From an uncultured bacterium (GTDB lineage Bacteria > Acidobacteriota > Thermoanaerobaculia > Multivoradales > JAHZIX01), in assembly GCA_965368975.1 (NCBI GenBank), contig CBDUPA010000022.1, forward strand, positions 32,001 through 96,000: a stretch of DNA of 64,000 bases, read 5' to 3'. Numbering within the stretch: position 1 is the stretch's first letter; each line of letters begins with the position of its first letter. The translations under genes were made by a program, and so were the position numbers. Under the pieces are notes generated by a model that did no database searches, had not been told where the DNA came from, and saw only the letters and a list, made by a program, of their open reading frames with translations. Positions 4,342 to 63,094 of this stretch are shown piece after piece.

Positions 4342-4430
4342 ATCCACGGTGTGCGGTCATTGCCGGGTTGTTGTCCGAGAAACTGTCCGAGATGGGTCGA
4401 AGATGAGGGCCCAATCGCTGGTTCGAACAG

Positions 4431-43961: not shown

Positions 43962-44223
43962 CTATTCGCCAGAGGCGGTTCGAGCCATCCGCAAGCTCGA
44001 TCCACAGATTCGCCGGAGAGTTCGAAAAGGTATAGAACAGCTACAGGTCGAGCCGCTGCGCGGAAAGCCACTACAGTTCGAGTTCAAGGGGCTGCGCTCT
44101 TGGCGAACCGGGGATTTTCGGATTGTGTATTCCGTTCAAGATCATGTGCTTCGAATTTTGATTGTCACGGTGGGGCACCGTCGAGAGGTGTACCAGAAGC
44201 TGCGGACAAAGTTGCGGAGCTAA
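43945..44223 (+). CDS. RelE/ParE-family toxin
   Basis: GKPL...RSWRTGDFRIVY...VGHRREVY; overlaps the antitoxin. Confidence 0.88.
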   Translation: MSWRVDYSPEAVRAIRKLDPQIRRRVRKGIEQLQVEPLRGKPLQFEFKGLRSWRTGDFRIVYSVQDHVLRILIVTVGHRREVYQKLRTKLRS

Positions 44224-44242
44224 GACCGAGGAGATTCTGGTG

Positions 44243-45157: not shown

Positions 45158-45238
45158 GCAGGCTTAAAGAAGGCTGCGATGACAGTACATATCCGTGGTT
45201 AGAGTTTCTGAGAGACTGGATGTTGGAAGGGAGAGATT

Positions 45239-45871
45239 ATGGGCAAGAACAAAGCTGAGAATGAGACTGAGCGACTGGGTGGGTATTGCATTCATTGCGA
45301 AAGCCCGTCGTCATTCTTTCTTTATCGTAGCGACCATTTTGATTTGCGTGGAGTTCCTTATGTGTACCGGTTTGCATCATGTGATAGGTGCAGCGGTCCT
45401 GCCGTTTTCTGGGCTGAGCACGCTGAGGGCTACGATGAAGAGGATCTAGCGCTCCATCGTGTTTTTCCTCGGCACCGGGCTTCTCTGGCATGCGCGCTTC
45501 CTAAGATTGCAGAGCAGTCCTTCAACGAAGCTATGCGCTGTGAAGAAGCCAAGGCGTGGCTAGCTGCGGTGGTTATGGTAGGTAGGACTCTTGAAGCTGT
45601 GTGTCAAGAGCACTTTTCGCAGGAGAAGGGGCTTACTATCTTCAAGGGTATTGAGCTTCTATTCAAGGAAGGTCTGATCAGTGAGCAATTGAAGTCTTGG
45701 GCTGATGAACTGCGCATCCTTCGAAACATCGGGGCTCATGCAACAGATGTTGATGTTGATGAGAAGGATGCTAAAGAAGCAATCGATTTCCTTAGAGCGA
45801 TTCTGGAAAATCTGTATGATTTGACCCCGAAATTTGAAAGCTTCAAGGCTAGACGAGCGATAGCTAAGTGA
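45239..45871 (+). CDS. DUF4145 (HEPN-like) protein with N-terminal Zn ribbon
   Basis: CIHC...CDRC; GRTLEAVC, LRILRNIGAH (Rx4H); AT-rich codon usage. Confidence 0.75.
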   Translation: MGKNKAENETERLGGYCIHCESPSSFFLYRSDHFDLRGVPYVYRFASCDRCSGPAVFWAEHAEGYDEEDLALHRVFPRHRASLACALPKIAEQSFNEAMRCEEAKAWLAAVVMVGRTLEAVCQEHFSQEKGLTIFKGIELLFKEGLISEQLKSWADELRILRNIGAHATDVDVDEKDAKEAIDFLRAILENLYDLTPKFESFKARRAIAK

Positions 45872-47167: not shown

Positions 47168-47434
47168 GGTGGAGCGTTCGTCAGGAGGGCGTAAACAGTC
47201 AACTGCGCATTTCTCACTCTACCATACGGTGTGGACTTGTCCGCGGTTGCGAACTGCTTGAGACCTGCGACGCAAGGGTGCTTCCGTGGTGCCTTCGTGC
47301 GTGCTATGGTGCGCTGCCGGGCTACATCGTCCCGCCTCCGCTCTCGCCCGACTCAACCTTCCTGAAGACTCGACCAGCCCTCGCCCGACGACGTGATGGC
47401 TGACCCTGCCCAATGCACTCCGGAGACTGTACTC

Positions 47435-49255
47435 ATGGCTCTCGAAAGGCGCGAAGACCTTCGCAATCTCGCCATCATCGCCCACGTCGATCACGGCAAA
47501 ACGACGCTGGTGGACGCCCTGCTGTGGCAGAGCGGTATTTTTCGCGACAACCAGGAGGTGGCCGAGCGAGTGATGGACTCGATCGACCTGGAGCGCGAGC
47601 GCGGCATCACGATCATGGCCAAGAATACGTCCATCCGTTACCGCGACAGCCTGATCAACATCGTCGATACTCCGGGGCACGCCGACTTCGGCGGCGAGGT
47701 GGAGCGGACGCTGAAGCTGGTCGACGGCGTGCTGCTGCTTGTCGACTCCAGTGAAGGGCCGCTGCCGCAGACTCGCTTCGTGCTGCGCAAAGCGCTGGAG
47801 CTCGGGCTGCCGCCGATCGTCGTGGTCAACAAGATCGACCGGCCCGACGCGCGTCCGGCGGAGGTGCTGGACGAGGTCTACGACTTGTTCATCGACCTCG
47901 ACGCGCACGAGGACCAGCTCGACTTCCCTGTGCTCTTCACCAATGCTCGTGAGGGCAAGTGCCGGCTGACGGCGGACGGCGAGGAGACGACGCTGGAGCC
48001 GTTGATGGAGGAAATCCTGCGCACCGTGCCGGCGCCGACCTACGATCCGGAGATACCACTGCAAATGCTGGTGACGACGCTCGACTACGACGACTATGTC
48101 GGCCGCCTGGCGGTGGGACGCGTGGTCAGCGGCAACCTCAAGCGCGGCCAGGAGGTAGCGCGCTGCCGTCTGGACGGCGAGGTGGAGCGGGTGAAGGTGA
48201 CTGGCCTGTTTGGCCACCAGGGACTCAAGCGCGTGGCGGTGGAGACGGCGGGCCCCGGCGATATCGTGGCAGTGACCGGACTCGATGACATCTTTATTGG
48301 CGAGACGCTGGCCGACCTCGACGATCCGCGGCCGCTGCCGGTGATCCGGGTCGACGAACCGACCATCGCCGTCCACATCGGCATCAATGACTCGCCGCTG
48401 TCCGGCCGGGACGGCCAGCACGTGACGTCGCGCAAGCTGCGCGAGCGGCTGATCAAGGAAACGCTGGGCAACGTCGCGATCAAGGTCGAAGACACCGATT
48501 CGCCAGACACCTTCAAGGTCTCCGGCCGCGGCGAGCTGCAGCTGGCGATCCTGATCGAGATGATGCGGCGCGAAGGTTTCGAGATGAGCGTCGGCAAGCC
48601 GGAGATCCTGACTCGGCGCATCGACGGCAAGCTCCACGAGCCGATGGAATTGCTGGTGGTCGACTGCCCGGAGGAGTTTATCGGCGCGGTGACCCAGAAA
48701 CTGGGCACGCGCCGCGGTCGCATGACCAAGATGAGCAACCATGGCTCGGGGCGCGTGCGCATCGAGTTTCGGCTGCCGTCGCGCGGCCTGATCGGCTTCC
48801 GCAACGAGTTCCTCACCGACACCAGGGGCACCGGCCTGATGCACCAGCTGTTCGACGGCTTCGACCCGTGGCAGGGTGACATCGTACGCCGGGCCTCGGG
48901 GGCCCTGATCTCCGACCGTGCCGGCAAGGTGACGGCCTACGCGGTGGAGAACTTGCAGCCGCGAGGTGTTCTCTTCGCCGGACCCGGCACCGAAGTGTAT
49001 GAGGGCATGATCGTCGGCGAACACAACCGTCCGAGCGACCTCGACGTCAATATCACCAAAGAGAAGCGACTGACCAACATGCGTGCCTCGAGCGCAGACG
49101 AGTTGGTGCGCTTGACGCCGCCGACGGTACTCAGCCTGGAGCAGGCGCTGGAGCTGATCGAGGACGACGAGTTGGTCGAGGTGACGCCGACCTCTTTCCG
49201 GCTGCGCAAGCGCACGCTGCGTGCCGCGTTCCGTAAGAGCAAGAGCAAGGGCTGA
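47435..49255 (+). CDS. typA: Translational GTPase TypA/BipA
   Basis: [55 protein letters not shown]. Confidence 0.97.
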
Positions 49256-49456
49256 GCGGCGAACCGCAGGCAAGTGTCCCGGTAGAGAGCTGTTGGCGCA
49301 CAAACTTGGTGAGGTGGTAAGAAGCGCTGGTATGCCTCGCCAGCGTACAGTACAATCGACAACGGCCTGCCCTCTCGGCAAGCTTTTTGTTGTTGGGTTC
49401 CGCCGAACCCCGTCATTTGCAGCACCCGTGTGCTAGGGAAGAGGAGTACCAGACCG

Positions 49457-50917
49457 TTGGCCATCCGTAGACTCAAGCGTGCCGTTAAATCGCCGATCCA
49501 GCCGGTTCCTCGCGAGCAACCGCTGCCGGCTAGCTTCTATCAAGAGTTCGCCTACATTCTGCAGGGTGATCCGGTCAGCAATGTGCTGAACATGCCGCAG
49601 GGGGCGATTCTCGGGGGGCAGGTCAATCTGCGGGCGCTGGAAGGCACCTTCGCGGAGATGATCCGGCGCCACGAGTCCCTGCGCTGCCACTTCGAGCCGC
49701 AGGAGAGCGGGCCGTTGCTACAGAAGCTGGAGGACCGCGGCAGCTACTACCTGCCGGTGATCGACATCAGCGCCCTGCCGCAGGAAGTGCGCGAACAGGA
49801 GCGCCAGCGCCTGAGCGCGGCCTTCGCCGGTTTCCCGATGAACCTGCACACCGGGCCGCTGTTCATCACCACTGCCATCCTGCTCGGTCAGGACGCGGCA
49901 GCTCCGGGGGGCAGTCCTGGTCCCAACAAGGTGCTGGTGCTGATGAACTTGCACCACGCGTTCGGCGACGGATGGTCGATGACCGTGCTCAACCAGGAGC
50001 TGGTGACCATCTATCGCGCGCTGTCCAAGGGCCGGCCGTCGCCGCTGGCACCGCCGCGTTTGCAATTCGCCGACTACGCGGCCTGGCTGCGCCGGCGCAT
50101 GGACGAAGGCAAGCTGGACCCGCACCGCAAGTTCTGGCACGAGAACCTGAGTGGCGAGCGCGAATGGCCGCGCTTGCCCTACGACCGCCCGCGGACCGAC
50201 GACATCGGTGCCCAGGTGCACAGCACGTCGCTGCAGTTCGATCCCGACACGGCGAACGACATCCGCACCTTCAGTCGCAAGCTCGGCTGCACGGTGCCGA
50301 TCACGTTGCTGTCCGGTGTGCATGCCTTGCTCAACGGCTACAGCGGCCAGGAGGACGTCATCGTCGCCTGGGTGACGGCGGCGCGCAACCGTCCCGAGCT
50401 GGCCGGCATGATTGGCCTGTTCATGAACACCGTGGCGGTACGCGCCGACATCGGCGGCGACCCCACGTTCGAAGATCTGGCGGTGCGTGTGCGCAAGGCG
50501 TCGCTGGCCGCTTACGACCACCAAGAGATGCCCTACGTCACGCTGCTCCAGGAGTTGTTCCCGGACCGCAAGCTGGCGCGTACGCTGCTGACTCCGGTGG
50601 TCTTCAACATGCTGTCGTTCGCACCGCCGCCAGGTTCGGTCGGTGCGGGCACGCCGATGGACCTGGACGTCACCATGGAGATGGTGGGTTTGGGTGCCCA
50701 GGAGCAGGCGAAGTTCGACCTCACCTTCACCTGCATGGAATCGCCCTCGGTCATTGCGCTCAGTCTGTCCACCGCCGCCGCTCTCTTCGACAAAGAGACC
50801 GCGGAGGCGATTCGCGACGACTACCAGGATCTGATGAACCGGGCCATCGCCAATCCGGCCTTGCCGATGAGTGAGTTGACCAGCGGACTGCGCCTGCGCA
50901 GCCCGTCGAAGCAGTAA
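49457..50917 (+). CDS. Stand-alone NRPS condensation domain
   Basis: PLPASFYQE (C1), RRHESLR (C2), intact HHAFGDGWS (C3), QFADYAAW, LPYDRPR, IGLFMNT, AKFDL. No A or PCP domain. TTG start after GAGGAG (alternative GTG at 49430). Confidence 0.9.
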   Translation: MAIRRLKRAVKSPIQPVPREQPLPASFYQEFAYILQGDPVSNVLNMPQGAILGGQVNLRALEGTFAEMIRRHESLRCHFEPQESGPLLQKLEDRGSYYLPVIDISALPQEVREQERQRLSAAFAGFPMNLHTGPLFITTAILLGQDAAAPGGSPGPNKVLVLMNLHHAFGDGWSMTVLNQELVTIYRALSKGRPSPLAPPRLQFADYAAWLRRRMDEGKLDPHRKFWHENLSGEREWPRLPYDRPRTDDIGAQVHSTSLQFDPDTANDIRTFSRKLGCTVPITLLSGVHALLNGYSGQEDVIVAWVTAARNRPELAGMIGLFMNTVAVRADIGGDPTFEDLAVRVRKASLAAYDHQEMPYVTLLQELFPDRKLARTLLTPVVFNMLSFAPPPGSVGAGTPMDLDVTMEMVGLGAQEQAKFDLTFTCMESPSVIALSLSTAAALFDKETAEAIRDDYQDLMNRAIANPALPMSELTSGLRLRSPSKQ

Positions 50918-50978
50918 CCACATTCATGGTGGAATCCCCGCGGATTCCGCTGTCGATACGTTCGCGAGGGGAAGACCC

Positions 50979-52199
50979 ATGACTGAATTGCACCGCTTCC
51001 GCAACAGTGCCAAGGGCATGAAGTTGCTTGGCCCTTCCTTCGAGGAAGCAACCCGCAACGGCCTGATGGACATCGTTGCCCGCGACCTGGGCAACGATCA
51101 CATGCTGTCGGACGATGGCCTCGATTTCATCAATCTGTCGTGCTGCAACTATCTCGGCCTGCACAATCACCCGAAGGTGCTGGAATCCACCATCAAGGCC
51201 GTGCAGGAGTCGAACACTCTGACGCTCGGCTTTTCCCGCATGCGCATCCGTCTGAGCCACCTCGACCGCGCCGAGCGCGAAATGTCGGAGGTCTTCGGCT
51301 GCAACTGCCTGCTGGTGCAGTCGGCCAGTGTTGCGGCGCTGGCGGTGCTGCCGATGATGGCGGCCGGCGTGATCGGCACCGGCGAGCCGCCGGTGATGGT
51401 CTACGACAAGCACAGCCACTTCTGCATGAACCTCACCAAGCCGGTGTGCGCTGACGAGACCGAGGTGCTGACCTGCCCGCACAACGACTTCGACTTCCTC
51501 GAGGACGTGTGCAAGAAGCACAAGAACGTGGTCTATGTCGGTGACGGCGTCTATAGCATGGGCGGTCGGACCGTGCTCGAGAAGCTCAAGGAGCTGCAAG
51601 ACAAGTACGGCCTGTGGCTGTATCTGGACGATTCGCATGCCTTGTCGCTGTACGGCGAGAACGGCGAAGGCTTCGTGCGCGCTCACCTGAAGGAAGAGGA
51701 CGAACGTACGGTGATCGTCGGCTCGCTGGCCAAGGGCTTCGGCGCTTCCGGCGGCGTGGTGATGATCCACAAGAAGTGGGTGCCCAAGTTGATGACGCCG
51801 TTCGGTGGTCCGAGCGTCTGGTCGACGCAGCTGAATGTGCCGAGTTGCGGTGCCGTTCTGGGCTCGCTCGAGGTGCACCGTTCTCCGGAGCTGCAGGAGC
51901 TGCAGGGCAAGTTGCAGGCCAACCTCAAGACCTTCGACGACCATATCGAGACCCCGGGCAAGGGCACGCCGTTCCCAGTGCGCGTGATCCAGATTGGTGA
52001 CGGCGAGCGGGCGGCCGAGCTGTCCGGTGAGTTGCTGCGCCGCGGCTTCTACACGTCGGCCGTGTTCTTCCCGATCGTTGCCCGTGGCAAGGCCGGTCTG
52101 CGTGCCATGCTGCGCGCCAACAACAAGACTGAGGACATCATCCGCTTCGTCGAAACCGTCAAGGACGTGGTCGGCGACGAGATCGTCAGCGCCGCCTGA
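50979..52199 (+). CDS. PLP-dependent alpha-oxoamine synthase (AONS/KBL family, KtmB-like), copy 1
   Basis: NYLGL, HSHFCM, DGVYSMGG, LDDSH, SLAKGFG (PLP lysine), FFPIVARG. Confidence 0.85.
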   Translation: MTELHRFRNSAKGMKLLGPSFEEATRNGLMDIVARDLGNDHMLSDDGLDFINLSCCNYLGLHNHPKVLESTIKAVQESNTLTLGFSRMRIRLSHLDRAEREMSEVFGCNCLLVQSASVAALAVLPMMAAGVIGTGEPPVMVYDKHSHFCMNLTKPVCADETEVLTCPHNDFDFLEDVCKKHKNVVYVGDGVYSMGGRTVLEKLKELQDKYGLWLYLDDSHALSLYGENGEGFVRAHLKEEDERTVIVGSLAKGFGASGGVVMIHKKWVPKLMTPFGGPSVWSTQLNVPSCGAVLGSLEVHRSPELQELQGKLQANLKTFDDHIETPGKGTPFPVRVIQIGDGERAAELSGELLRRGFYTSAVFFPIVARGKAGLRAMLRANNKTEDIIRFVETVKDVVGDEIVSAA

Positions 52200-52246
52200 G
52201 CGCGCGCTGACGGCGGTCCACCAGAACCGCGATTCGCCAGCAGCTC

Positions 52247-52300
52247 GAGGGCCGCGGCGCCGTGAACTGAACCTCTCGCGCCCGGCCCCTTTTCGTTTTC
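52247..52300 (+). terminator. Possible terminator between oxoamine synthase 1 and the aldolase
   Basis: Imperfect stem GGGCCGCGGCGC...GCGCCCGGCCC followed by CTTTTCGTTTT; large loop. Confidence 0.35.
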
Positions 52301-52367
52301 ACTTTCCCTTGTTTGTCAATCCCCTCCTGGAGGAGGGTTCTGCAGAAGGGTCCCGAGGAGACCTGCC

Positions 52368-53249
52368 ATGTTGTTGTACCGCGACATCCTTCTGACGTCC
52401 GCACAGACGCCTGAGCGTTTCGTCAAGGCCAAGGAGGTCAAACCCGACCTCTGCCTGGTCAACTGCGAAGACCCGATTCCCCAATTCGAAGAGGACAAGG
52501 CGCGCGCCCGCAAGGTGTCGCTCGAGTGGCTCCAGCAAGAACACGAGGAGCCACCGTACGGCATCATGATCAACTGCCTGCGCACGCGCTTTGGCTTCCA
52601 GGACGTGCTGGCGTTGCAAGAGAGCGGCGCCAGACCCGAATACATCCTGATGGCCAAGGTGGAAGATCCGGAGGAGATCCGCATCGTCCACGAGATGTTG
52701 TCGCCGGTGATCCAGCCGCTGCGCCTGGGCATGATCGTCGAGTCGCTGCGCGGTGTCTGGGCACTGCACGAGATCGTGCACGCGGCCCCCAGCGTTGCTG
52801 GGCTGGTCCTCGGTGCGGCCGACTACGCCAACAACCTTGGCGTCGACGTCAATCCGGAGAGCCTGGCTCCCATCCGAGCCCGCATGGGTATGGCGGCGGC
52901 CAGCGCCGGCATTGCCTGCTGGGATGCGCCCTACTTCCACTACCAGGATCTCGACGGTCTGCGAGAGGAGTGTCGGCGCGCCCGGGCCTTCGGTTTCACC
53001 GGCAAGACGACGATCCACCCGAGCCACTGCAAGATCATCGAAGAAGAGTTCAAGCCCTCGTCGCGCGCCATCGACTTCGCCAAGCGAGTCGTGGCCGCGT
53101 GCGAAGAGCGCCGCGGTGGCATCGCGGTGGTCGACGGTCAGATGGTCGGCCGCCCCTTCGTCGCCAATGCTCGACGGGTGCTGGCGGCGGCCGGCGAGCC
53201 GATCCCCCCTACTCAGCAGGGAGATACCCCGCAGGGAGAGACAGCATGA
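52368..53249 (+). CDS. CitE/HpcH-family acyl-CoA aldolase/lyase (KtmA/RipC-like)
   Basis: PERF, CED, AKVE, IVES, GAADY, GFTGKTTIHPS, VDGQMV. Confidence 0.85.
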   Translation: MLLYRDILLTSAQTPERFVKAKEVKPDLCLVNCEDPIPQFEEDKARARKVSLEWLQQEHEEPPYGIMINCLRTRFGFQDVLALQESGARPEYILMAKVEDPEEIRIVHEMLSPVIQPLRLGMIVESLRGVWALHEIVHAAPSVAGLVLGAADYANNLGVDVNPESLAPIRARMGMAAASAGIACWDAPYFHYQDLDGLREECRRARAFGFTGKTTIHPSHCKIIEEEFKPSSRAIDFAKRVVAACEERRGGIAVVDGQMVGRPFVANARRVLAAAGEPIPPTQQGDTPQGETA

Positions 53250-53776
53250 AGAACCCCGTCGCCGCTCACAAGCAGGTGGGCGACAAGCGCTACCGCGAGG
53301 TGTCCGGCCTCTACTTCGACGACTTCGAGGTCGGCGACGTGTTCGAACATCGTCCCGGGCGTACCGTCACCAATACCGACAACATCTGGGGCTCGCTGCT
53401 GGCGATGAACCCGCACCCGCTGCACATCGACGCGGCCTACTGTGAGCACACCGAGTTCGGCGAGCTGCTGGTGTCCAGCCTGGTCACGTTCTCGATCGTC
53501 AATGCCATGACTGTCACCAGCACCAGCTTCAAGGCGATCGCCAACCTGGGCTGGGACAAGGTACGCTTGACCGGGCCGGTCTTCGCGGGTGACACGTTGT
53601 ACGCCGAGTCCGAAGTGCTGAGCAAGCGCGAGTCCAAATCGCGTCCCGGCCAGGGCATTGTCACCGTGCGCACGCGTGGCCTGAAGCAGGACGGCAGCGA
53701 GATCATGCACTTCGAGCGCACGTTCCTGGTGCCAGTGCGCGGCAGTGAGACCGTCGAGTCCAAGGCTGGTTATTGA
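53246..53776 (+). CDS. MaoC-family acyl-CoA dehydratase (KtmC/RipB-like)
   Basis: GLYFDDFEVGDVFEHRPGRT..TDN, NPHPLH, ANLGW, PVFAGDTL, KRESKSRP. True start is the ATG at 53246 (ATGA overlap), not 52526. Confidence 0.88.
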   Translation: MKNPVAAHKQVGDKRYREVSGLYFDDFEVGDVFEHRPGRTVTNTDNIWGSLLAMNPHPLHIDAAYCEHTEFGELLVSSLVTFSIVNAMTVTSTSFKAIANLGWDKVRLTGPVFAGDTLYAESEVLSKRESKSRPGQGIVTVRTRGLKQDGSEIMHFERTFLVPVRGSETVESKAGY

Positions 53777-53787
53777 TGGGGGAGTTG

Positions 53788-54783
53788 ATGCGAGCGATCG
53801 AAGTCACCGAACCCGGGGGGCCGGAGGTTCTGCAGATCCAGGATGTGCCGATGCCGGAGCCCGGCCCCGGCCAGCTGCGCGTACGTATTCGAGCGGCAGC
53901 GCTCAACTACGCTGACACCTTGCAGCGCAAGGGGCTGCTCAGTGCGCCGGGCGACAACCAGCGCCTGGGGATCGAGCTGGCCGGCACCATCGACGCCATC
54001 GGGGACGGTGCCACGGACGTCGACGGCGGCGCCTGGAAGGTGGGGGAGCGGGTGTTCGCCATCATCACCGCCGGTGCCTATGCCGAATACGCGCTGACAG
54101 AGGCGGCGCTGACCCAGCGCATGCCCGAGAACTGGGACTATCCCGAGGCCGCCGCGGCACCGGAAGCCTTCTACGTGGCCAACGAGACGCTCTTTCACGT
54201 CGGTGGCCTGCAGCGCGGTGACAGCGCGCTGATCCATGCCGGCAGCAGTGGCATGGGAACCGGCTTGCTGCAGCTGGCGCACGTCAAAGGCATCACCGTG
54301 CTGACCACCTCGGGCAGCCCGGAAAAGCGTGCCCGCCTCGAGGAGCTCGGTGCCGACCTGGTTATCGACTACAAGAACCAGGACTACCTGGAAGCTGTCC
54401 GGGAGTTCACCGACGGTGCCGGCGTCGACCTGGTGCTCGACATGGTCGGCCAGCGCTACCTGGGCAAGAACCTGCAGGCGCTCAAGCCCGATGGTCGGTT
54501 GATCCAGATCGGTCTGCTCGAGGGCTACGATCCGGGCGAGCTGGATCTGCTGCTGCTGGTCATGAACCGTCTGATCGTCCGCGGCTGGGCCATGCGTGGC
54601 CAGTCCAACGACGACAAGCGTCAGATCGTGCGTCGTTTCCGTGACCAGGTATTGCCGCGTTTTGCTGCCGGCGAGATCCGGCCGGTGGTCGACTCCACCT
54701 TCCCGCTCGAAGACGCCGCGGGTGCGCACCGCCACCTGGAGTCGCACCGGCACTTCGGCAAGATCGTGCTGACTGTCGACTGA
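53788..54783 (+). CDS. NAD(P)H MDR enone/quinone oxidoreductase (PIG3/QOR-like; KtmF-like role inferred)
   Basis: PGGPEVL, LNYAD, GAYAEY, HAGSSGMG, HFGKIVL; no catalytic Zn cysteines. Confidence 0.88.
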   Translation: MRAIEVTEPGGPEVLQIQDVPMPEPGPGQLRVRIRAAALNYADTLQRKGLLSAPGDNQRLGIELAGTIDAIGDGATDVDGGAWKVGERVFAIITAGAYAEYALTEAALTQRMPENWDYPEAAAAPEAFYVANETLFHVGGLQRGDSALIHAGSSGMGTGLLQLAHVKGITVLTTSGSPEKRARLEELGADLVIDYKNQDYLEAVREFTDGAGVDLVLDMVGQRYLGKNLQALKPDGRLIQIGLLEGYDPGELDLLLLVMNRLIVRGWAMRGQSNDDKRQIVRRFRDQVLPRFAAGEIRPVVDSTFPLEDAAGAHRHLESHRHFGKIVLTVD

Positions 54784-54842
54784 CCCGGAACTCGGAGTTT
54801 GCATCTCGTCAATTCCGATTCGTGATGGAGTGAGGCCGGACC

Positions 54843-56078
54843 ATGAGTGGCTTGCATCGTTTTCGCAATAGTGCCAAGGCTATGGCGCTGACCGCGCCGT
54901 CGTTTCAGCAGGTCCGTGACCACGGTCTCGTCGGCCTGAGCGTCGAGAACCTCGGTGGTGACCTTCTGCGCGGCGCCGACGGCACCGAGTTCACCAGCTT
55001 CTCGTTCTACTCCTACCTCGGGTTGGAGAACCACCCGAAGGTCATCGAGGGTGCTATCGACGCTTTGCGTCGCGTCGGTATGTTCCGCATGCCGATGTCA
55101 CGCATGCGCGCCAACTTCGACCTCGTTGAGCAGATCGAGGCTGACCTCTCCGAGCTGTGGCGCTGTAACCTGGTACTCACCTCGTCGGCCAGCAACGCCG
55201 CGCTCGGGGTCCTGCCGCTGATGGCCGCCGGCCTGATTGGTGAGGGCGAAGCGCCCGTGATGGTGTTCGACGGGCACAGCCACTTCTGCATGAACCTGGC
55301 CAAGCCCGTGTGCGCCGACGAGACCGAGGTGCTCACCTGCCCGCACAACGACTTCGATTTTCTGGAAGACGTGTGCAAGAAGCACGAGCACGTCGCCTAC
55401 GTCGGGGACGGCGTCTACAGCATGGGCGGTGCCTCGGCGCTCGATGAATTGCTGCGCTTGCAGGACAAGTACGGTCTCTACCTCTACTTCGACGACACCC
55501 ACTCCGTGTCCCTCTACGGTGAGTTCGGCGAAGGCTTCGTGCGTGCCCGCACCGAGGACCTGCACGAGCGCACCATCATCGCTGCGTCCCTCGGCAAGGG
55601 TTTCGGTGCCTCGGGTGGGGCCATTCTGATGCACCAGCGTCACGCCCAGGCCCTCTTGACACCTTATGGCGGCCCGGTGGTCTGGTCGCAGAGCCTCAAT
55701 GTTCCGTCATTGGGCGCCATCGTTGGTTCGATCGAGGTCCACCGCACGCCCGAGCTAGCTGAGTTGCAGCAGAAGCTGCGTCGCAACATCGAACTCTTCG
55801 ATCGTCAGATCGGCACACCGCAACAGGGCGGTCCGTTCCCGGTGCGCGTCATTCGTATCGGTGCCGCCGAGGAAGCCGCCGAGATCTCCGGTGAATTGCT
55901 GCGTCGTGGCTTCTACTGCTCCGCCGTCTTCTTCCCGATCGTCGCTCGCGGCCAGGCAGGCCTCCGCGCCATGCTGCGCGCCAACCAGAGCGAAGAGCAG
56001 ATCGTCCGCTTCTGCGACACGGTCAAGGACGTGGTGGGAGAAGAGCGGTTGCAGGAGCTGAGCACGCCGTCTGCCTGA
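54843..56078 (+). CDS. PLP-dependent alpha-oxoamine synthase (KtmB-like), copy 2
   Basis: Paralogue of 50979-52199: LHRFRNSAK, SYLGL, HSHFCM, FDDTH, SLGKGFG. Confidence 0.85.
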   Translation: MSGLHRFRNSAKAMALTAPSFQQVRDHGLVGLSVENLGGDLLRGADGTEFTSFSFYSYLGLENHPKVIEGAIDALRRVGMFRMPMSRMRANFDLVEQIEADLSELWRCNLVLTSSASNAALGVLPLMAAGLIGEGEAPVMVFDGHSHFCMNLAKPVCADETEVLTCPHNDFDFLEDVCKKHEHVAYVGDGVYSMGGASALDELLRLQDKYGLYLYFDDTHSVSLYGEFGEGFVRARTEDLHERTIIAASLGKGFGASGGAILMHQRHAQALLTPYGGPVVWSQSLNVPSLGAIVGSIEVHRTPELAELQQKLRRNIELFDRQIGTPQQGGPFPVRVIRIGAAEEAAEISGELLRRGFYCSAVFFPIVARGQAGLRAMLRANQSEEQIVRFCDTVKDVVGEERLQELSTPSA

Positions 56079-56206
56079 TCTCCTGCTTGGCCCCCTTTTT
56101 TGCCACTTAGCGCGTCTTCATATAGAGAGACATCGAGTCGGAGCCGTCGTGCCGCAAGTACTTCAAGCGCACGCTCTCCCGCTCGGGCGAAAGGAGGTGA
56201 GCGCGA

Positions 56207-56296
56207 ATGAACACGGTTTTGGCGTTGCAGGATCTGAGTGATGGTCGCGATGACACGCAGCAGCTGTCGTCGCTGATCAGCCTGAATTGTTGCTGA
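56207..56296 (+). CDS. lanA: Class III lanthipeptide precursor, 29 aa: MNTVLALQDLSDGRDDTQQLSSLISLNCC
   Basis: Below the ORF-track size cut-off. Perfect SD AAGGAGGTGA (56191-56200); leader VLALQ (LxLQ motif); core S-x2-S-x2/3-C; directly upstream of LanKC. Confidence 0.88.
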   Translation: MNTVLALQDLSDGRDDTQQLSSLISLNCC

Positions 56297-56328
56297 GCTC
56301 AGCACCGGCTTGATCTTACGCAAAGACA

Positions 56329-56376
56329 GCTTCGGGCGCTTCGCGTCCGCGTCGCGCCCGGAGCAGTATTCTTTCT
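56329..56376 (+). terminator. Stem-loop between precursor and lanKC (attenuator or stabiliser)
   Basis: GCTTCGGGCGC...GCGCCCGGAGC followed by AGTATTCTTTCT. Confidence 0.5.
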
Positions 56377-56426
56377 CGATAGCACAACAGCCCGCTGGCG
56401 CTGGGCACTGACCTTTTGGATGCACC

Positions 56427-59132
56427 ATGGCACTCGCGATAGAGCGGCGACTGAAGCGCGGCATGTTCGCCTTCACAGTCGTCGATCGAAGATACTTTGA
56501 AGATCTCGCACGTTATCAACCGGCCGATCGCACGTTTCAAGACCTGATCGAGGCTCATCTGCCGCCAGCTTGGAGCTGCCGGCGGGAGGAGATCTGGCTC
56601 AAGGTGGTTCCGCCGGAGCGGCCGCTGCCGGCACAGGGGTTCAAGATTCACCTCTCGGCCACCTCGCGTTCCAGCCGAGACACTCTGGGGCGGGTACTGC
56701 CCCTGCTGCTGGAAGGCGAACTGGCTTTCAAAGTCGTGGCCGACGATTTTCTGCTCGACTTCTTGAATTCCAAGAACGGCTCTCGATCCTCCTCCGGCAA
56801 GTTCATCACCATTTACTTGCCCGAGGCGGAGATCGGACTGGACTTGTTGCCTCGACTGGAGCAGGAGGTTGGCGAGGCGGCGGCGCCGTACATCTTGACC
56901 GACCGGCGCTACGGGGACAGTCGGGCGGTCTTCTATCGCTACGGCGGCATCCGACCGCACTTCCGGCTCAATCTCTTCGGTGAGAAGGAGCCACTGCTGC
57001 GCCTACCGGACGGCAGCCAGGTCCTCGACGAGCGGGCCCCTGTGTTCAGCTGTCCACCGGGCATCGAGGATCCGTTTCAGCCGCCGCAGGTCACGAGATC
57101 GGAAGCCGCGGACGACACCGATCTGCTGCGGGGACGCTACCGGGTGCTCGAGGCACTGCAGTTCGCGAACTCCGGGGGAGTCTACGCCGGGATCGACGTT
57201 ACGACGGGGCAGAAGGTCGTGATCAAAGAGGCGCGGCCCTACGTCAGCGTGCGTCGCGGCTCGGATCTGGACGCCGTGGCGATCCTGGACAAGGAAGCGC
57301 GGGTTCTGGAGCGCTTGCAACCACTGTTGTGCGTGCCTCGCTTGCTCGATCGCTTTGAACATTGGGAGCACTCCTTCCTGGTCGAGGAGTACATCGAGGG
57401 CCGAACCCTGTCCTCGTACCGAGCCCTCGACGATGTCGGCCTGCTGGTGCAGCCGCGCCTGACAGCTCAGCGGGTCGCAAGCTTCTGTCGCCGCTTCGCG
57501 CGGCTCGGTCTCAATCTGTTGCGGGCTGTGCGCGCGTGTCACGATCTCGGTGTGCTCCTGGGGGATCTTTCGCCATCGAACGTGCTGGTCGACCTGGAAA
57601 CCCTGGATGTGACGCTGATCGATTTCGAAGGCGCCTTCCTGGACGGCGACCACCGTGGCCAGGAGATGGCGGCGGTGACCGGCGGGTTCGTGTCGCCGCG
57701 CCGGATTCAGGGGCAGGCACCGGTGCCCGAGGACGACTACTACTCGCTCGGGTCCGTCCTCTACAGTCTGATCCTGCCGATCCAGGCCTTCTTCCCCTTG
57801 CAGCCGGAGGCGCAGCGGACGATGTACCAGGCGATCGAGCACGATCTCGACCTCCCGGCGGAGGTCGGGGCGGGGCTCTTCGCGCTGCTGGACGGTGAGC
57901 CGGAGCGGGCGCGTGATCACCTGGAAGCGCTCCTGCGACTGCCGCCGCGGCCGACGGCCTGGTGCCCACGACCGCTGACGCCACCGGACGCGGCCCTGCA
58001 GCAGCAAGCCGAGTGCACCCTGCAAGCGATCGTCCGCGACCTGCAGGCGTGCGCCGACTTCGAGCGCGACGATCGCCTGTGGCCGGCGGACTACCGCGTC
58101 TTCACCACCAATCCGCTCAACCTGGCGTACGGTGCTACCGGTATCGCCCTGTTCCAGCATGCCGTCACTGGCCGGCTCGACGAACGCGTCAGGGGCTGGT
58201 TGTTGCAGCACCTACCGTCGTCCAGGACCTGCCCGCCGGGCTTGTTCGTGGGCATGGCGGGCATTGCCTGTGGCTTGACCGAGCTCGGACTGCCAGACGC
58301 AGCCCGTGATGTCCTGGAGGGGGCCTGGCAGTCGCCGTTGCGCGACGAAGGTTTCGACCTCTTCTATGGTCTCGCGGGCTTGGGGCTGGCGCATCTGTAC
58401 TTCTGGCACACCTATCGGGAACCGCGCTTCCTGGCTCGCGCTCGGTACGCGGCGCAGCGGCTCGAGCAGGCCGCGGTCCAGGCGGACATCGGTTGTTACT
58501 GGACCAACGTCGATGGTCACCAGTACTACGGCTATGCCCACGGTGGCAGTGGTGTCGCGCTCTTCCTGCTGCGCTTGCACGAAGCGACCGGCGACGTGAT
58601 GCCGCTCGCGCTCGGCCGTCGGGCGCTGGAGCACGAGATGTCGGCGGCGGTGCGGCGTGAGGGGCAGGCAGGCTGGTGGCGCGCGCCGGACCACCCTCTG
58701 CTGTCTCCGTACTGGCGCTACGGGGCCGCGGGAGTCGGTAGCGTGTTGATCCGCTACTACCAAGCCTTGGGCGACGAGCGCACCTTGCGTCTGGCCGAGG
58801 AGGCCGCCGTCTATGCCGCCTCCCGCTACTCGGTCTACCCAGGCCAGCTCTTGGGCCTCGCCGGCATGGGCGAGTTCCTACTCGACTTGTTTCTCGCCAC
58901 CGGCGATTCACGCTATCACCACCAGGCCTGGGACCTGGTGCGAAGTGTGCTGCACTTTCGGGTCGAGACTCCTCATGGCATCTCGTTTCCGGGTGAGGAG
59001 TTGATCCGCTTGAGCACGGACTTCGCCACAGGTAGCGCCGGTATCGGCATGTTCTTGGAGCGTTGTTTACGGCCACGGCATCGCTTTCTCCTGGACTTGC
59101 CAGCACACAGAAAGGTACCTGGCGATGCTTGA
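56427..59132 (+). CDS. lanKC: Class III lanthipeptide synthetase (lyase-kinase-cyclase)
   Basis: Lyase QGFKIHLSA, SGKFITIY, FYRYGG; kinase NSGGVY, IKEARP, GDLSPSN, IDFE; LanC-like YAHGGSG, YWRYGAAG, STDFATGSAG with no visible Zn-ligand cysteines. Confidence 0.93.
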   Translation: MALAIERRLKRGMFAFTVVDRRYFEDLARYQPADRTFQDLIEAHLPPAWSCRREEIWLKVVPPERPLPAQGFKIHLSATSRSSRDTLGRVLPLLLEGELAFKVVADDFLLDFLNSKNGSRSSSGKFITIYLPEAEIGLDLLPRLEQEVGEAAAPYILTDRRYGDSRAVFYRYGGIRPHFRLNLFGEKEPLLRLPDGSQVLDERAPVFSCPPGIEDPFQPPQVTRSEAADDTDLLRGRYRVLEALQFANSGGVYAGIDVTTGQKVVIKEARPYVSVRRGSDLDAVAILDKEARVLERLQPLLCVPRLLDRFEHWEHSFLVEEYIEGRTLSSYRALDDVGLLVQPRLTAQRVASFCRRFARLGLNLLRAVRACHDLGVLLGDLSPSNVLVDLETLDVTLIDFEGAFLDGDHRGQEMAAVTGGFVSPRRIQGQAPVPEDDYYSLGSVLYSLILPIQAFFPLQPEAQRTMYQAIEHDLDLPAEVGAGLFALLDGEPERARDHLEALLRLPPRPTAWCPRPLTPPDAALQQQAECTLQAIVRDLQACADFERDDRLWPADYRVFTTNPLNLAYGATGIALFQHAVTGRLDERVRGWLLQHLPSSRTCPPGLFVGMAGIACGLTELGLPDAARDVLEGAWQSPLRDEGFDLFYGLAGLGLAHLYFWHTYREPRFLARARYAAQRLEQAAVQADIGCYWTNVDGHQYYGYAHGGSGVALFLLRLHEATGDVMPLALGRRALEHEMSAAVRREGQAGWWRAPDHPLLSPYWRYGAAGVGSVLIRYYQALGDERTLRLAEEAAVYAASRYSVYPGQLLGLAGMGEFLLDLFLATGDSRYHHQAWDLVRSVLHFRVETPHGISFPGEELIRLSTDFATGSAGIGMFLERCLRPRHRFLLDLPAHRKVPGDA

Positions 59133-61566
59133 GCAAGGCTTGCGCACCGGACTACGTCTGATGACTCGGCAGCGAGGTTTCGCCACTGCCTTGATCCTCA
59201 CACTGGCACTGGGCGTCGGTGGGGTCACGGCTTTCTTCGCCGTGCTCTACGGCGCCGCGCTGCGGCCGTTGCCGTACCCTCGGTCCGGCGAGCTCGTCTT
59301 GTTCCAGTGGCAAGGGCCTGGAGGGGGGGCTTCCTATGCCACCAGCGAGGGGCGCTTCCGCGCCTGGCAGGCGCAGCCGTCGCCGTTCGCCGCGCTGGCC
59401 GCGCACCAGCTCAAGAGCGCGGGGCAGACCGTTGGAGATCCAGGAGGGGAGCCACGCTATGTCCAGACGCTGAAGGTCTCGACGAGCTTCTTCGAGACCT
59501 TGGCAGTGGCACCTTTCTTGGGCCGGGTGTTCTTGCCGAACGATGGCTATGCCGGGGCGTCCTGCTCGGTCGTGGTGGCTCATGACTTTTGGCGCCATGA
59601 TCTCGCTGAACAATGGCCTGCCGAGGTGCGGGTGGGTGGCGAGCACTGCCAAGTGGTCGGCGTCATGCCCACGGACTTCCGCTTTGCTCCCGCGGCGCAG
59701 CTTTGGGTACCGCAGCGTGCGGGGGGTAGGAGCGAGAGCGGGGCCAACCTCTATGCCGTTCTGGGACGGCTGGCCGAGGGGTTCGACCGACGCCAGGCAG
59801 AAAATGCAGTCAATGCGATGGGGAGAGCCGTTGCGGCCAGCGAGCCGCGGGTGGCCGAGACGGAGCGAATCCGTCTGCTCAGTCTCGAGGAGCGCTTGCG
59901 CGGTGCAGGGCGCGCTCGTCTGTGGCCGTTGGCCCTCGCTGGAGGGCTGGTGCTGTTCGTTTGCCTGCTCAATCTGTCGCATCTCTTGGTGGCGTACGTC
60001 GGGTGCCGCCAGCAGTCCCTCAGCCTGCGGCGGGTGCTCGGAGCTCCTTGGACGCGCATCGGGACCGGGATTCTCGCCGAACTGACGCTGCCGACGCTGA
60101 CCGGGATCGGGCTCGGGCTGGTCCTCGCATCCGCGGTCCTGGCGTGGGTCTCGAAGACGGGCGCTCTGGCACTCTCAGCGGTCGCGGTGGTGTCGTTGGG
60201 GTGGGTCGAATTTGCCTTCGCTGCCTGGATCACGGTTCTGTGCATGGGCTTGGTGGTCACGGTCTTGGTTGTGCGCATGGCTCGACGCGAGAGCTCCTCC
60301 GCCTTGCGTCCAGAAGCCGCGCACCGCTCCTGTACTCGCATCGTCGGGCGGCCGCTGGCTCGCAGACTGGTGGCTATCCAGGTCGCGTGCTCGTTGGCCG
60401 TTCTCTTCACGACTTTCTTGTTCTATGGCAACCTGCAGCGTCTCGGCCGAGTCGATCTGGGGTTCGATACGGCAGGTGTCTGGACCTTTCAGGCTCCACG
60501 AGAGGCGGTGGCGTCGACGGCCGGCAACCAACGCTTCACCGAGGCGGTGATCGAGCGCTTGCAGCTCCTGCCGGGAGTCACGGCGGTGGCCACGACGACC
60601 AGTCTGCCGACAGAACTCGGGCTCAACATTCCCGCGGAAGTCGAGAGCGGGCAGGTGCTCGACGCGGCTTCCGTCGAGTTACGGGCCGTGAGTCCGGACT
60701 ACTTCCGAGCCTTGAGTATTCGCATCGAGCAGGGCCGTGGACTGGATCCCCTCGACCAGGCAGGGACATCGCCGGTCGCCGTGGTCAACGAAGCCTTCCA
60801 GCGGCGCTTCTGGGGCCGGGGGCCGGAGAGGGACGCGCCCAGTGCTGTCGGTCAGCGTCTGCGGTTGGCGCGAGGTCTGGGGCCTCTCAGCGACGCGCCG
60901 CGGGAGGTCGTGGGCATCGCGGCGGACGTCCGTACCGCTGGCCCGGCCGTGCCAGTGCCGGCGATTGTCTATGTGCCTCGGCCGCAGCTGCCAGAGGCCC
61001 TCCAGGAGCTGATCGATCAGGCTTTCCCAGTCTCGTTTGTGGTCCGTCTCGAGAACGAGCGCACCCTCGATCCTCGCCGCGTGCGGGCCCTGGTCCGCGA
61101 CGTGGAACCCTGGCAGGCGCTCACCGCCCATCGCGGTATGGCTGAGGTGGTGCAGGGAGCCCTGAGCGGGCACCGGCTCCATGCCCTGCTAGCAGTCTTG
61201 TTCGGCTTTTTGGGACTGTCGCTGTCGTCGCTGGGCATCTTCGGGGTCACCCATGCTGACGTGGTCCTGCGCACCCGGGAGTTCGGAGTACGTAAGGCCA
61301 TTGGGGCCTGTGAGAACAGTGTGCTCCGCCTCGTTCTGGGTACAGTCCTCGGACGGACGCTGGCCGCCATTGTGGTCGGACTACCTCTGTGCGGCGCCGT
61401 CTTCCGTGGACTCGGAAGCCTGGTCGTCTTCGACGATGACTGGCTCGCTGCGCTTGGCGGCGCAGCCTTGTGCGTTCTCGCCGTCGCCGTTCTGGCGGCT
61501 GTGGTCCCCGCGTGGCGTGCTGCGCGTCTGGACCCTCTGTGCGCTCTGCGCTCCGAGGAGAGCTGA
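59125..61566 (+). CDS. Duplicated MacB/FtsX ABC permease (ADOP-like)
   Basis: LTLALGVG...RPLPYP, GRVF, VVGVMP, VDLGFD, REFGVRKAIGA, PAWRAARLDP..ALR; overlaps the lanKC stop. Confidence 0.85.
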   Translation: MLEQGLRTGLRLMTRQRGFATALILTLALGVGGVTAFFAVLYGAALRPLPYPRSGELVLFQWQGPGGGASYATSEGRFRAWQAQPSPFAALAAHQLKSAGQTVGDPGGEPRYVQTLKVSTSFFETLAVAPFLGRVFLPNDGYAGASCSVVVAHDFWRHDLAEQWPAEVRVGGEHCQVVGVMPTDFRFAPAAQLWVPQRAGGRSESGANLYAVLGRLAEGFDRRQAENAVNAMGRAVAASEPRVAETERIRLLSLEERLRGAGRARLWPLALAGGLVLFVCLLNLSHLLVAYVGCRQQSLSLRRVLGAPWTRIGTGILAELTLPTLTGIGLGLVLASAVLAWVSKTGALALSAVAVVSLGWVEFAFAAWITVLCMGLVVTVLVVRMARRESSSALRPEAAHRSCTRIVGRPLARRLVAIQVACSLAVLFTTFLFYGNLQRLGRVDLGFDTAGVWTFQAPREAVASTAGNQRFTEAVIERLQLLPGVTAVATTTSLPTELGLNIPAEVESGQVLDAASVELRAVSPDYFRALSIRIEQGRGLDPLDQAGTSPVAVVNEAFQRRFWGRGPERDAPSAVGQRLRLARGLGPLSDAPREVVGIAADVRTAGPAVPVPAIVYVPRPQLPEALQELIDQAFPVSFVVRLENERTLDPRRVRALVRDVEPWQALTAHRGMAEVVQGALSGHRLHALLAVLFGFLGLSLSSLGIFGVTHADVVLRTREFGVRKAIGACENSVLRLVLGTVLGRTLAAIVVGLPLCGAVFRGLGSLVVFDDDWLAALGGAALCVLAVAVLAAVVPAWRAARLDPLCALRSEES

Positions 61567-61579
61567 GAGCGGGGAGGGG

Positions 61580-63094
61580 TTACGACCCCGAGCGCGGGGG
61601 CGGTGGCGGCAGCTTCGGTGGCGGTGGTAGGTCGTCTGCTTCGCTCGCCGCTGGCGGTGGCGGAAGCTCTGGCGCCGCCGGGGCGGCTGGTGGAGGCGCC
61701 ATCGGAGGGGGAGGTGGTGGCGCCGGTGCCGCTGGGATCGGTGCCGCAGGAGGTGGTGCCGCAGGAGGCGGTGCCGCAGGAGGCGGTGCAACTGGAGGCG
61801 GTGCAACTGGCCGTGCCGCTGGCGGTGCAACCGGCGGCGGACCCAGGCGGGCTGGACTCGGGCGGGGCCCAGCCGGACGGCGGCGGGTGAGTAGGACGAT
61901 GACGACGATCAACAGCACCAGGGCTACAACGCCACCGATCAGGAGTCCTTGCTTGCCGCCGAGCTTGGCCAGCAGGCCGGTGTCGGCCGCGGAGTCCGCG
62001 CCGGGGGGTTGGCCGGTGCCGTTGTCGGGCGTCCTCTCTCCGGCTGGGTCTCCACCCGCTTGAGGTGTCGCCGGATCGAGCGCCTCCGCCTCGGAGCCGG
62101 CTGGGTCGGTGGTGCCGTCGGTAGTCGTGCCGTCTTCGCTCCCCGTCACGCTTCCATCTGGATCAGGGACGCGGCGGATCGTGTCCGGCATCACGCGGAT
62201 GGTCGGCGGTTCTGCCGGGGGGATTGTCGGTGGGGGTGGTGAGCTGCGCGGAGCTCGACGGTTCGGGGGAGGTGGGCTCGCGGGTGGCACAGTGACCGGC
62301 GGCGGTGACGGCTGAGATTCCGAGCGGTTCGGTCGACGCGCGGGTGGTTGGGCAGTCCCGGACCCGGACGAAGACGTCGTTCCCTGCCGGCGATCACGGC
62401 TGGCCGTGGCGGCGAAGGCTTCGAGGTCGGGCGCGGCTTCTTCCAGGATGCGGTCGAGCAGTTCCCGGTGGCGCTTGCGGCGGAAGGCCGAGAAGACGCT
62501 GTCGGAATCGAGAGGGTTGTCGAGGGCCTCGCTGCGGCTCTCGTCGCGGTCGTCACGGTTCCAGGTCCGTTCGTAGCGGCGACGGAAGATGTAGTCAGCG
62601 CTGGCGGTCTCGATAACCAGGATCTCCAGGGTCATGCGCTGCTCCCGCCGCTGGTGACGGTAGCCGCGCACGATGCCGGTGAGCACGTAGGGCACGCCCA
62701 GCCGCTGGCCCAGGCGTGCGCCCAGGCTGGGATCGACGGCCACGCGCTCGGCCGGGATGCCCAGTTCCGCCAACGCGCTGCGGACCGCGGTCCGACTCGC
62801 TGGCACCATGCTGTCGAGCTGCGACAAGGTGCTGTGCAGCGCTGCCTCGCTGTGCTCTTCGAGGTCGGACAAGCTCTCCCCGGAAGCGTTGACGATCTCG
62901 ACGACCGCCACCTGGATCTGCGCCGCTGCCGGTGCTGCTGCTAGAAGCGCTGCCAGCAGCACAGCCAGCCCAGTCGAGACCAACAAAGCGAGCAGGCTGA
63001 GGGTCGAAGGATGCAGAGTGCCCCTCCGAGGCGTGAGGATCCGGGGTGTCCCCGGTGCTGGCGGTTCCGGTGGTGAAGGGGCCAGATGGAACAT
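61580..63094 (-). CDS. Single-pass protein: CsgG/TolB-N-like extracytoplasmic domain, Pro-rich linker, TM, Pro/Ala-rich tail
   Basis: Signal-like hydrophobic N-terminus; VAVVEI...ARLGQRLGVPYVLTGIV; TM LLIGGVVALVLLIVVIVLL; repeated APPPA. Confidence 0.6.
   Translation of the reverse strand: MFHLAPSPPEPPAPGTPRILTPRRGTLHPSTLSLLALLVSTGLAVLLAALLAAAPAAAQIQVAVVEIVNASGESLSDLEEHSEAALHSTLSQLDSMVPASRTAVRSALAELGIPAERVAVDPSLGARLGQRLGVPYVLTGIVRGYRHQRREQRMTLEILVIETASADYIFRRRYERTWNRDDRDESRSEALDNPLDSDSVFSAFRRKRHRELLDRILEEAAPDLEAFAATASRDRRQGTTSSSGSGTAQPPARRPNRSESQPSPPPVTVPPASPPPPNRRAPRSSPPPPTIPPAEPPTIRVMPDTIRRVPDPDGSVTGSEDGTTTDGTTDPAGSEAEALDPATPQAGGDPAGERTPDNGTGQPPGADSAADTGLLAKLGGKQGLLIGGVVALVLLIVVIVLLTRRRPAGPRPSPARLGPPPVAPPAARPVAPPPVAPPPAAPPPAAPPPAAPIPAAPAPPPPPPMAPPPAAPAAPELPPPPAASEADDLPPPPKLPPPPPRSGS

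Follow-up and report, generated by a model that had tools for sequence, protein, structure and literature searches.

The window analyzed here is a 64,000-nucleotide stretch of DNA, positions 32001-96000 of contig C22 in an acidobacterial genome (G000; 7.13 Mb in 59 contigs, 99.3% complete). Open reading frame (ORF) calls, Pfam and NCBIfam searches and reading of the junctions showed nine genes on the plus strand, from 49430 to 61566, with spacers that are short or negative. The cluster starts directly 3' of typA/bipA, a housekeeping GTPase gene (47393-49255). Judged from sequence, it is reasonably probable that the first six genes (49430-56078) form a ketomemicin (ktm)-type pathway by which this Thermoanaerobaculia-class soil acidobacterium makes a pseudopeptide of the carbonylmethylene (psi[COCH2]) kind, that a condensation (C) domain of the nonribosomal peptide synthetase (NRPS) kind stands in for the ligase KtmD, and that the three lanthipeptide genes that follow are separate. 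An earlier note on this DNA had expected a host outside the actinomycetes, in agreement with the same-order and same-class relatives, which are metagenome-assembled genomes of the Acidobacteriota and Thermoanaerobaculia.

The cassette genes

The first gene (49430-50917, GTG start) encodes a stand-alone C-domain protein of 495 amino acids, of which residues 31-484 match the Pfam Condensation family (229.4 bits). It is followed by AONS1 (50979-52199; 406 amino acids), a KtmB-like alpha-oxoamine synthase dependent on pyridoxal phosphate (PLP). Next come a KtmA-like aldolase of the HpcH/CitE fold (52368-53249; Pfam HpcH_HpaI, 72.7 bits), a KtmC-like MaoC dehydratase (53246-53776; Pfam MaoC_dehydratas and MC_hydratase) and a KtmF-like enoyl/enone reductase of the MDR type (53773-54783; Pfam ADH_N and ADH_zinc_N). 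The sixth gene is AONS2 (54843-56078; 411 amino acids), a second KtmB-like alpha-oxoamine synthase.

The gaps between these six same-strand genes are 61, 168, -4, -4 and 59 bp. The aldolase and dehydratase genes share an ATGA start/stop overlap. The reductase is listed with a TTG start at 53773, which makes a 4-nt overlap with the dehydratase stop; with the in-frame ATG at 53776 the junction reads TGATG. A scan of 49200-61800 found four terminator-like sites, all of them intragenic and none intergenic (7.0 expected from shuffles), and no sigma-70-like promoter site (0 found vs 0.8 expected). The spacer between AONS1 and the aldolase gene (52200-52367) contains a G+C-rich stretch followed by T-runs, which the terminator scan did not call. 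The earlier note had listed CitE-like, MaoC, MDR and AONS-family genes with overlapping or near-abutting junctions from aldolase to reductase. All four types are indeed present and intact on the plus strand, and the two overlaps confirm the junctions. The range given there, 50979-56078, stops short of the C domain that precedes these genes and of the lanthipeptide operon that follows them, both of which the note overlooked.

Both synthases pass the cut-off of the NCBIfam family PRK07505 (478.8 bits for AONS1 and 504.2 bits for AONS2, cut-off 342). In the bioF model they score 158.5 and 137.9 bits, under the cut-off of 426.45, and in the Kbl model 126.4 and 121.2 bits, under the cut-off of 460. 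The nearest solved chain to AONS2 is 8xha (Alb29) with 323.9 bits; the best Kbl chain scores 108 bits. The separation of the synthases from BioF and Kbl rests on these NCBIfam and PDB scores, and the synthase tree was built without BioF or Kbl rows. An alignment of four synthases showed that AONS1 and AONS2 both retain the invariant Lys of the stretch S-L-x-K-G-F-G, which we take to be the PLP-binding Lys, and the stretch D-D-x-H, presumably the D-x-x-H motif.

AONS1 and AONS2 are 62% identical to each other, and neither exceeds 55% identity to any other match. In the FastTree phylogeny (midpoint-rooted) they are sisters with a support of 100, which together with the identities points to a lineage-specific duplication of the synthase. 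The tree left out six related loci. Four of these (L071, L077, L078 and L080) were apparently the same sequences as L019, L012, L031 and L033, and dropping the other two, L018 and L019, removed the genomes G357 and G397. A tblastn search with AONS2 (1e-10) found no synthase copies in the genome besides the two in the window. AONS1 holds the canonical position, after the C domain and before the aldolase, and AONS2 is an addition after the reductase. Two synthases per locus recur in L013, L061 and L079. Most likely the twin synthases load different amino acids or form a heterodimer.

Among named NCBIfam models, the aldolase comes closest to RipC and the dehydratase to RipB. The scores, 218.9 in RipC_Ccl and 245.1 in RipB_Ich, are below the cut-offs of 375 and 340. 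The solved chain nearest to the aldolase is 3qll, a 'citrate lyase' (162 bits), which we take to be RipC. The reductase passes the PIG3 subfamily model (344.7 bits vs 296.8) and is 45-50% identical to the MDRs of acidobacterial cassettes. The window was scanned with Pfam as 63 ORFs (15 + 48; before 47.5 kb just those of at least 200 amino acids), and no CoA-transferase family (RipA-type) was found among these.

A reference locus for the ktm genes came from a scan of species-representative genomes with the four-synthase alignment, which gave 44 loci. This locus (L038) belongs to Streptomyces sp. I05A-00742, whose genome announcement reports a ketomemicin-related cluster detected by antiSMASH (PMC7317104). 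Its order is aldolase, synthase, MaoC, a PGM1-type ATP-grasp protein (PreAtp-grasp and PGM1_C), an unnamed 387-amino-acid gene and MDR, and this matches the ktmA-F order as given in a 2024 survey (bioRxiv 10.1101/2024.10.29.620863). The synthase in the KtmB position scores 516.5 bits in PRK07505, the MDR scores 185 bits in the PIG3 model, below the cut-off, and the protein in the KtmE position matches no Pfam family even at E 0.05. Identity to the window proteins is 60% for the dehydratase, 46% for the synthase, 27% for the MDR and 31% for the aldolase, the last value resting on a tblastn high-scoring segment pair.

No ATP-grasp or amidinotransferase family was found by Pfam in the 63 window ORFs. 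In addition, a tblastn search with the L038 ligase detected no KtmD homologue in the whole genome at 1e-5, and the query from the KtmE position gave a single match, 30% identical, on another contig (C26). These results are consistent with the absence of both enzymes from the window as reported by the earlier note. The same note had proposed that the cassette is of the ktm type and had named grouping with RipB/RipC and BioF/Kbl as the alternative. Every score in those four models is under its cut-off, both synthases pass PRK07505, and the family scores, the conserved synteny and the ktmA-F-ordered L038 locus all favor the ktm type. Confidence that a ktm-type building block is the output of the cassette is moderately high.

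The stand-alone C domain and related loci

The C domain is nearly full length, matching positions 4-445 of the 456 in the Pfam profile, and its catalytic motif is intact (HHAFGDG, of the HHxxxDG type). No adenylation (A) or carrier (T) domain is attached to it. A tree of 63 C domains (IQ-TREE quick mode, LG+G4, arbitrary root) placed it in a clade of 13 rows with an SH-aLRT support of 100. The same clade was obtained by IQ-TREE without L018 and by FastTree. The C-domain trees left out the six loci omitted from the synthase tree, and L018 was restored for the 63-domain tree. The clade holds five of the 10 synthase-adjacent C domains, all five length-filtered C domains that converge on an MDR gene, and two other C domains from within the loci. 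The C domains of L014, L018, L010, L060 and L082 fall in it; the 21 further C domains taken from the window's own genome all lie outside.

The simplest reading is that for C domains of this clade the acceptor is the pseudodipeptide's free amine, a role that KtmD has in ketomemicin biosynthesis. The earlier note had described the cassette as lacking its ligase. This part has to be revised; a C domain of the cassette-flanking clade lies 61 bp upstream of AONS1, so that an amide-forming partner replacing the ATP-grasp ligase is probably present. Confidence in a role of the C domain in the pathway is moderate.

Linkage was determined by mapping the window proteins with tblastn onto 124 loci, 44 from genomes and 80 from metagenomes. 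Fifty-five of these are well flanked, meaning that the sequence extends 4 kb or more beyond the synthase in either direction. Counted within 6 kb of the synthase, 50 of the well-flanked loci have the aldolase and 46 the dehydratase, 46 have the two together, and 31 have the MDR. A C domain was found within 10 kb in 15 and an A domain in 13. A KtmD-like ATP-grasp protein is present in three, and a Lant_dehydr_N (LanB-like) protein in 12. Five well-flanked loci (L010, L048, L089, L101 and L102) lack both aldolase and dehydratase. Host names on record include Acidobacteriota (Thermoanaerobaculia, Holophagales), Pyxidicoccus, Myxococcus, Archangium, several Mycobacterium species, Streptomyces, Micromonosporaceae, Alpha- and other Proteobacteria, Rheinheimera and Brevibacillus. 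Two of 41 relatives (G000 counted among them) have the synthase, and none of the five from the same family does. A scan of 401 genomes of the phylum found it in three.

In 11 of the 124 loci the synthase has a C domain upstream on the same strand at a distance under 400 bp, and a convergent C domain directly after the MDR in six. In L014 an A-T-C protein precedes the cassette. In L007/L018, L010 and L011 (Pyxidicoccus fallax) there are multimodular NRPSs whose terminal C domain just precedes the synthase. C-C proteins about 920 amino acids long occur in five loci (L012, L013, L074, L090 and L107), and in L012 and L090 an A-T or C-A-T protein is nearby. L060 has a complete stand-alone C protein of 541 amino acids followed by the cassette, as in the window; it lies on a 10-kb contig with the upstream side cut off. 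Cassette-only loci with no C domain in the scanned flanks also exist, for example L059 and L009.

Several other arrangements were observed. A DUF3326 protein of about 440 amino acids lies directly upstream of the synthase in the acidobacterial cassettes of L012, L013, L070, L074 and L090. L012 and L090 combine it with the convergent C-C protein, the A-T or C-A-T protein and a MarR-GNAT fusion, apparently as a larger type of cluster that is conserved. In L010 the PRK07505-type synthase lies between two multimodular NRPS genes, one of which includes a sulfotransferase domain. Within 10 kb of this synthase there is no aldolase, dehydratase or MDR, and it may act on an NRPS-bound thioester. The LanB-linked architecture of 12 well-flanked loci is found in, among others, L008/L019 (G397), L025, L028, L029, L031, L032, L033, L065 and L072. 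Its order is synthase, an MDR fusion, MaoC, aldolase, a 458-amino-acid protein of no family and a protein of about 700 amino acids with an N-terminal lantibiotic-dehydratase domain. The MDR is fused to a C-terminal part of about 470 amino acids with weak, sub-threshold ATP-grasp-like Pfam matches. These loci may represent a use of the ketomethylene cassette similar to that of peptides made by the ribosome and modified after translation (RiPPs) or peptide aminoacyl-tRNA ligases (PEARLs). Several genomes of non-tuberculous Mycobacterium (loci L016, L017, L021, L022, L027, L041 and L052) have the order synthase-aldolase-dehydratase, and no MDR was detectable in their flanks with the window query.

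Predicted pathway and alternative readings

The chemistry and order of the ktm reactions were reportedly worked out by Kawata et al. in 2017, and the steps in the window were assigned by homology to KtmA, KtmC, KtmB and KtmF. The aldolase would join a 2-oxo acid to malonyl-CoA to give an alkylmalyl-CoA, which the MaoC enzyme would dehydrate to an alkylfumaryl-type CoA ester. An alpha-oxoamine synthase would then carry out a decarboxylative condensation of the fumaryl-type ester with an amino acid, and reduction of the enone by the MDR would give H2N-Xaa-psi[COCH2]-Yaa-OH. Thus a pseudopeptide of the Xaa-psi[COCH2]-Yaa type is the predicted product. The stand-alone C domain would acylate the free amine of this pseudodipeptide with a thioester donor supplied in trans. 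Candidates are acyl-CoAs and acyl or aminoacyl groups loaded on a carrier of one of the genome's many NRPS systems. CoA-using starter C domains have precedents. A donor carried by an NRPS is conceivable because the genome is very rich in NRPS genes for its 7.1 Mb, with 116 Condensation matches, at least 150 PP-binding matches and frames up to about 14,800 amino acids.

The ktmA-F clusters of Micromonospora, Streptomyces and Salinispora are the known systems to which the cassette can be compared. The window has all four enzyme types, translationally linked, and its synthases share the subfamily of the L038 protein in the KtmB position. However it has a stand-alone NRPS C domain instead of the ATP-grasp ligase or amidinotransferase, its synthase is duplicated, its order is synthase-aldolase-dehydratase-reductase-synthase rather than A-B-C-D-E-F, and its host is acidobacterial. 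The 2024 survey, for which a cluster had to have all six genes, found its ktm homologues in Actinomycetota alone (bioRxiv 10.1101/2024.10.29.620863). The NRPS-coupled cassettes of Acidobacteriota and Myxococcota, such as L014, L007/L018 and L011, have the same synthase-aldolase-dehydratase-reductase order with a C domain directly before the synthase, but most of them carry donor-supplying A and T domains, whereas in the window the C domain stands by itself and the synthase is present twice. RipC (citramalyl-CoA lyase) and RipB (enoyl-CoA hydratase) share the folds of the aldolase and dehydratase, and their chemistry is the reverse of the proposed aldol addition and dehydration; the window enzymes differ in scoring below the equivalog cut-offs, in having no CoA transferase partner and in their linkage to genes of biosynthesis, a PLP synthase among them. 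Alb29 is, like the window synthases, a natural-product alpha-oxoamine synthase that takes an amino acid larger than glycine or alanine. It differs in using L-Glu and simple acyl-CoAs in the albogrisin pathway, as reported for structure 8XHA (PMC11906848).

The window locus and the 124 related loci suggest that the four genes travel together as a portable module for a building block, found in Acidobacteriota, Myxococcota, Mycobacterium, Proteobacteria and Brevibacillus. It plugs into at least three kinds of amide-forming partner, namely ATP-grasp ligases, terminal C domains of NRPSs and the LanB-like/ATP-grasp-like set. Carbonylmethylene (ketomethylene) dipeptide isosteres are classic protease-inhibitor pharmacophores, and to our knowledge their biosynthesis has so far been described just for the actinomycete ketomemicins. 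No NRPS-coupled or acidobacterial version of the ktm pathway was described in the full-text literature searched, and most subscription journals lie outside that coverage, so one may have been published. The enzymology would be that of the known ktm pathway. The phylum, the stand-alone C domain in place of ligase and amidinotransferase, the synthase duplication and the view of the cassette as portable would be new. The window offers a minimal, expressible version of six genes, with a stand-alone C domain and two synthases, which could give new pseudopeptides and could reveal how a C domain employs a ketomethylene amine as acceptor.

A number of observations weigh against a C-domain-coupled ktm pathway. 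The aldolase and reductase are just 31% and 27% identical to their L038 counterparts. Enzymes related to PRK07505 are not uniformly KtmB-like, as Alb29 condenses L-glutamate with ordinary acyl-CoAs (PMC11906848). The locus counts are not independent, since the 124 loci include many short ones and at least four sequences that occur in both collections. No AMP-binding or PP-binding family was found by Pfam in the 63 window ORFs or in the 16 ORFs of the 10.5 kb that remain to the end of the contig. The C domain is thus without a visible donor, and its stand-alone use is inferred. Half of the synthase-adjacent C domains (five of 10) sit outside its clade, and its own row is a long branch (0.9-1.05) of atypical composition.

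The missing A and T domains and the long branch would also fit a cassette that yields one or two free pseudodipeptides, one per synthase, with the C domain a relic of an NRPS-coupled ancestor or a servant of some unrelated NRPS, and loci such as L059 and L009 show that the cassette does occur on its own. This is unlikely, since the C domain is matched over its full length with the catalytic motif intact, lies on the same strand just ahead of AONS1, groups with other cassette-flanking C domains and has a second stand-alone counterpart in L060. A different product would result if the synthases act like Alb29, their nearest solved relative (323.9 bits), on ordinary acyl-CoAs to give an alpha-aminoketone or a heterocycle derived from it rather than a carbonylmethylene pseudopeptide. 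PRK07505 membership alone leaves the acyl substrate unfixed; the linkage to aldolase and dehydratase, found with the synthase in 46 of 55 loci and translationally coupled in the window, would fix it. This linkage is the signature of the ktm route and makes an Alb29-like role distinctly improbable. As RipC and RipB are the best-named relatives of aldolase and dehydratase, the genes could also serve itaconate or citramalate degradation together with biotin or threonine metabolism (BioF/Kbl). Such a housekeeping function is scarcely credible given that every RipC, RipB, bioF and Kbl score is below its equivalog cut-off, that the scanned ORFs contain no CoA-transferase family, that the synthase is so patchily distributed (three of 401 genomes in the phylum, none of five in the family) and that elsewhere NRPS, ATP-grasp and LanB-like genes accompany the cassette.

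The lanthipeptide genes that follow AONS2 raise one more possibility, that all nine genes of 49430-61566 act together and the pseudopeptide unit is joined to a short lanthipeptide by the C domain or by an unrecognised enzyme. The logic would be comparable to that of the lipolanthines and pheganomycin, and if true this would be a RiPP/pseudopeptide hybrid without described precedent. The nine genes are on one strand with short gaps, the spacer between AONS2 and lanA is free of structured elements (z = -0.42), and the LanB-like protein beside the cassette elsewhere implies that it can be combined with RiPP-type enzymes. However the lanthionine synthetase LanKC is found near the synthase in none of the 55 well-flanked loci and in none of the 124 overall. 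Among the 41 relatives it is present in seven, vs two for the synthase; the phylum scan found it in three of 401 genomes, and in G357, a same-order relative that has both, they are on separate contigs. In addition, the sole carboxyl of the pseudodipeptide would be free, and by NRPS chemistry a C domain could not activate it. With a free carboxylate and no ATP-dependent ligase, a hybrid product lacks a chemical route, and we regard it as very doubtful. The cassette and the lanthipeptide genes are read as two neighboring modules because LanKC and the cassette are distributed independently among the relatives.

The lanthipeptide genes and other neighbors

The lanthipeptide operon begins 128 bp after AONS2. 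lanA (56207-56296) encodes a class III lanthipeptide precursor of 29 amino acids (MNTVLALQDLSDGRDDTQQLSSLISLNCC), with a GGAGG-type ribosome-binding site, AAAGGAGGTG, 7 nt before the ATG. LxLQ-type leaders and Ser/Ser/Cys cores are motifs of class III lanthipeptide precursors, and LanA has a V-L-x-L-Q leader stretch and an S-x-x-S-x-x-C core. The intergenic region 3' of lanA (56297-56426) contains an attenuator-like hairpin followed by a U-rich stretch (minimum free energy -54.5 kcal/mol, z = -3.22; none of 200 shuffles folds as well). LanKC (56427-59132) is a class III lanthionine synthetase with lyase (RamC_N), kinase (Pkinase) and cyclase (LANC_like) domains in Pfam. It passes the class III model NF038151 (721.8 bits vs a cut-off of 575) and is below the cut-off of 650 in the class IV model (568.4). 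The last gene (59125-61566), whose start overlaps the LanKC stop by 8 nt, encodes a duplicated MacB/FtsX-type permease with two stretches each of MacB_PCD and FtsX. It is ADOP-like, with 508.5 bits in TIGR03434, below the cut-off of 622.3.

In G357 and G352 the LanKC homologues are immediately preceded by small ORFs that share the V/I-L-x-L-Q-x-L stretch with LanA and have tails rich in Ser and Cys. The window locus resembles class III systems in that LanKC passes the class III model and a short LxLQ-type precursor is directly upstream. It differs in the unusually short precursor (29 amino acids, with a core of about nine), in the acidobacterial host and in adjoining a pseudopeptide cassette. 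No acidobacterial class III locus of this kind was described in those parts of the searched literature that were available. LanA, LanKC and the permease are predicted to make an ordinary class III lanthipeptide as a separate module. This module may be co-transcribed with the cassette, since the four terminator-like sites are all intragenic and none falls in a gap. Confidence in any link between cassette and lanthipeptide is low.

Several peptidase genes were considered as parts of the cluster and rejected: an M1 peptidase (15201-18026), an M4 peptidase (39815-42406) and TldD/PmbA and S9 genes, which lie from 7.5 to more than 30 kb away and partly on the other strand. The last two are downstream of the window on contig C22 (96455-103198) and encode a 1185-amino-acid protein with TldD/PmbA metallopeptidase domains and an 833-amino-acid protein of the S9 prolyl-oligopeptidase family (3455-7012 and 7697-10198, both on the minus strand, in locus L053). 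They are 3-10 kb past the permease on the opposite strand; no connection with leader removal emerged, and LanA contains no proline.

Upstream of the cluster, at 44162-45871, an Mrr-type restriction endonuclease (Mrr_N and Mrr_cat) is followed by a DUF4145/HEPN-like protein. This pair is probably a small acquired defense islet, as it occupies the only low-G+C stretch of the window (0.52 vs about 0.65).

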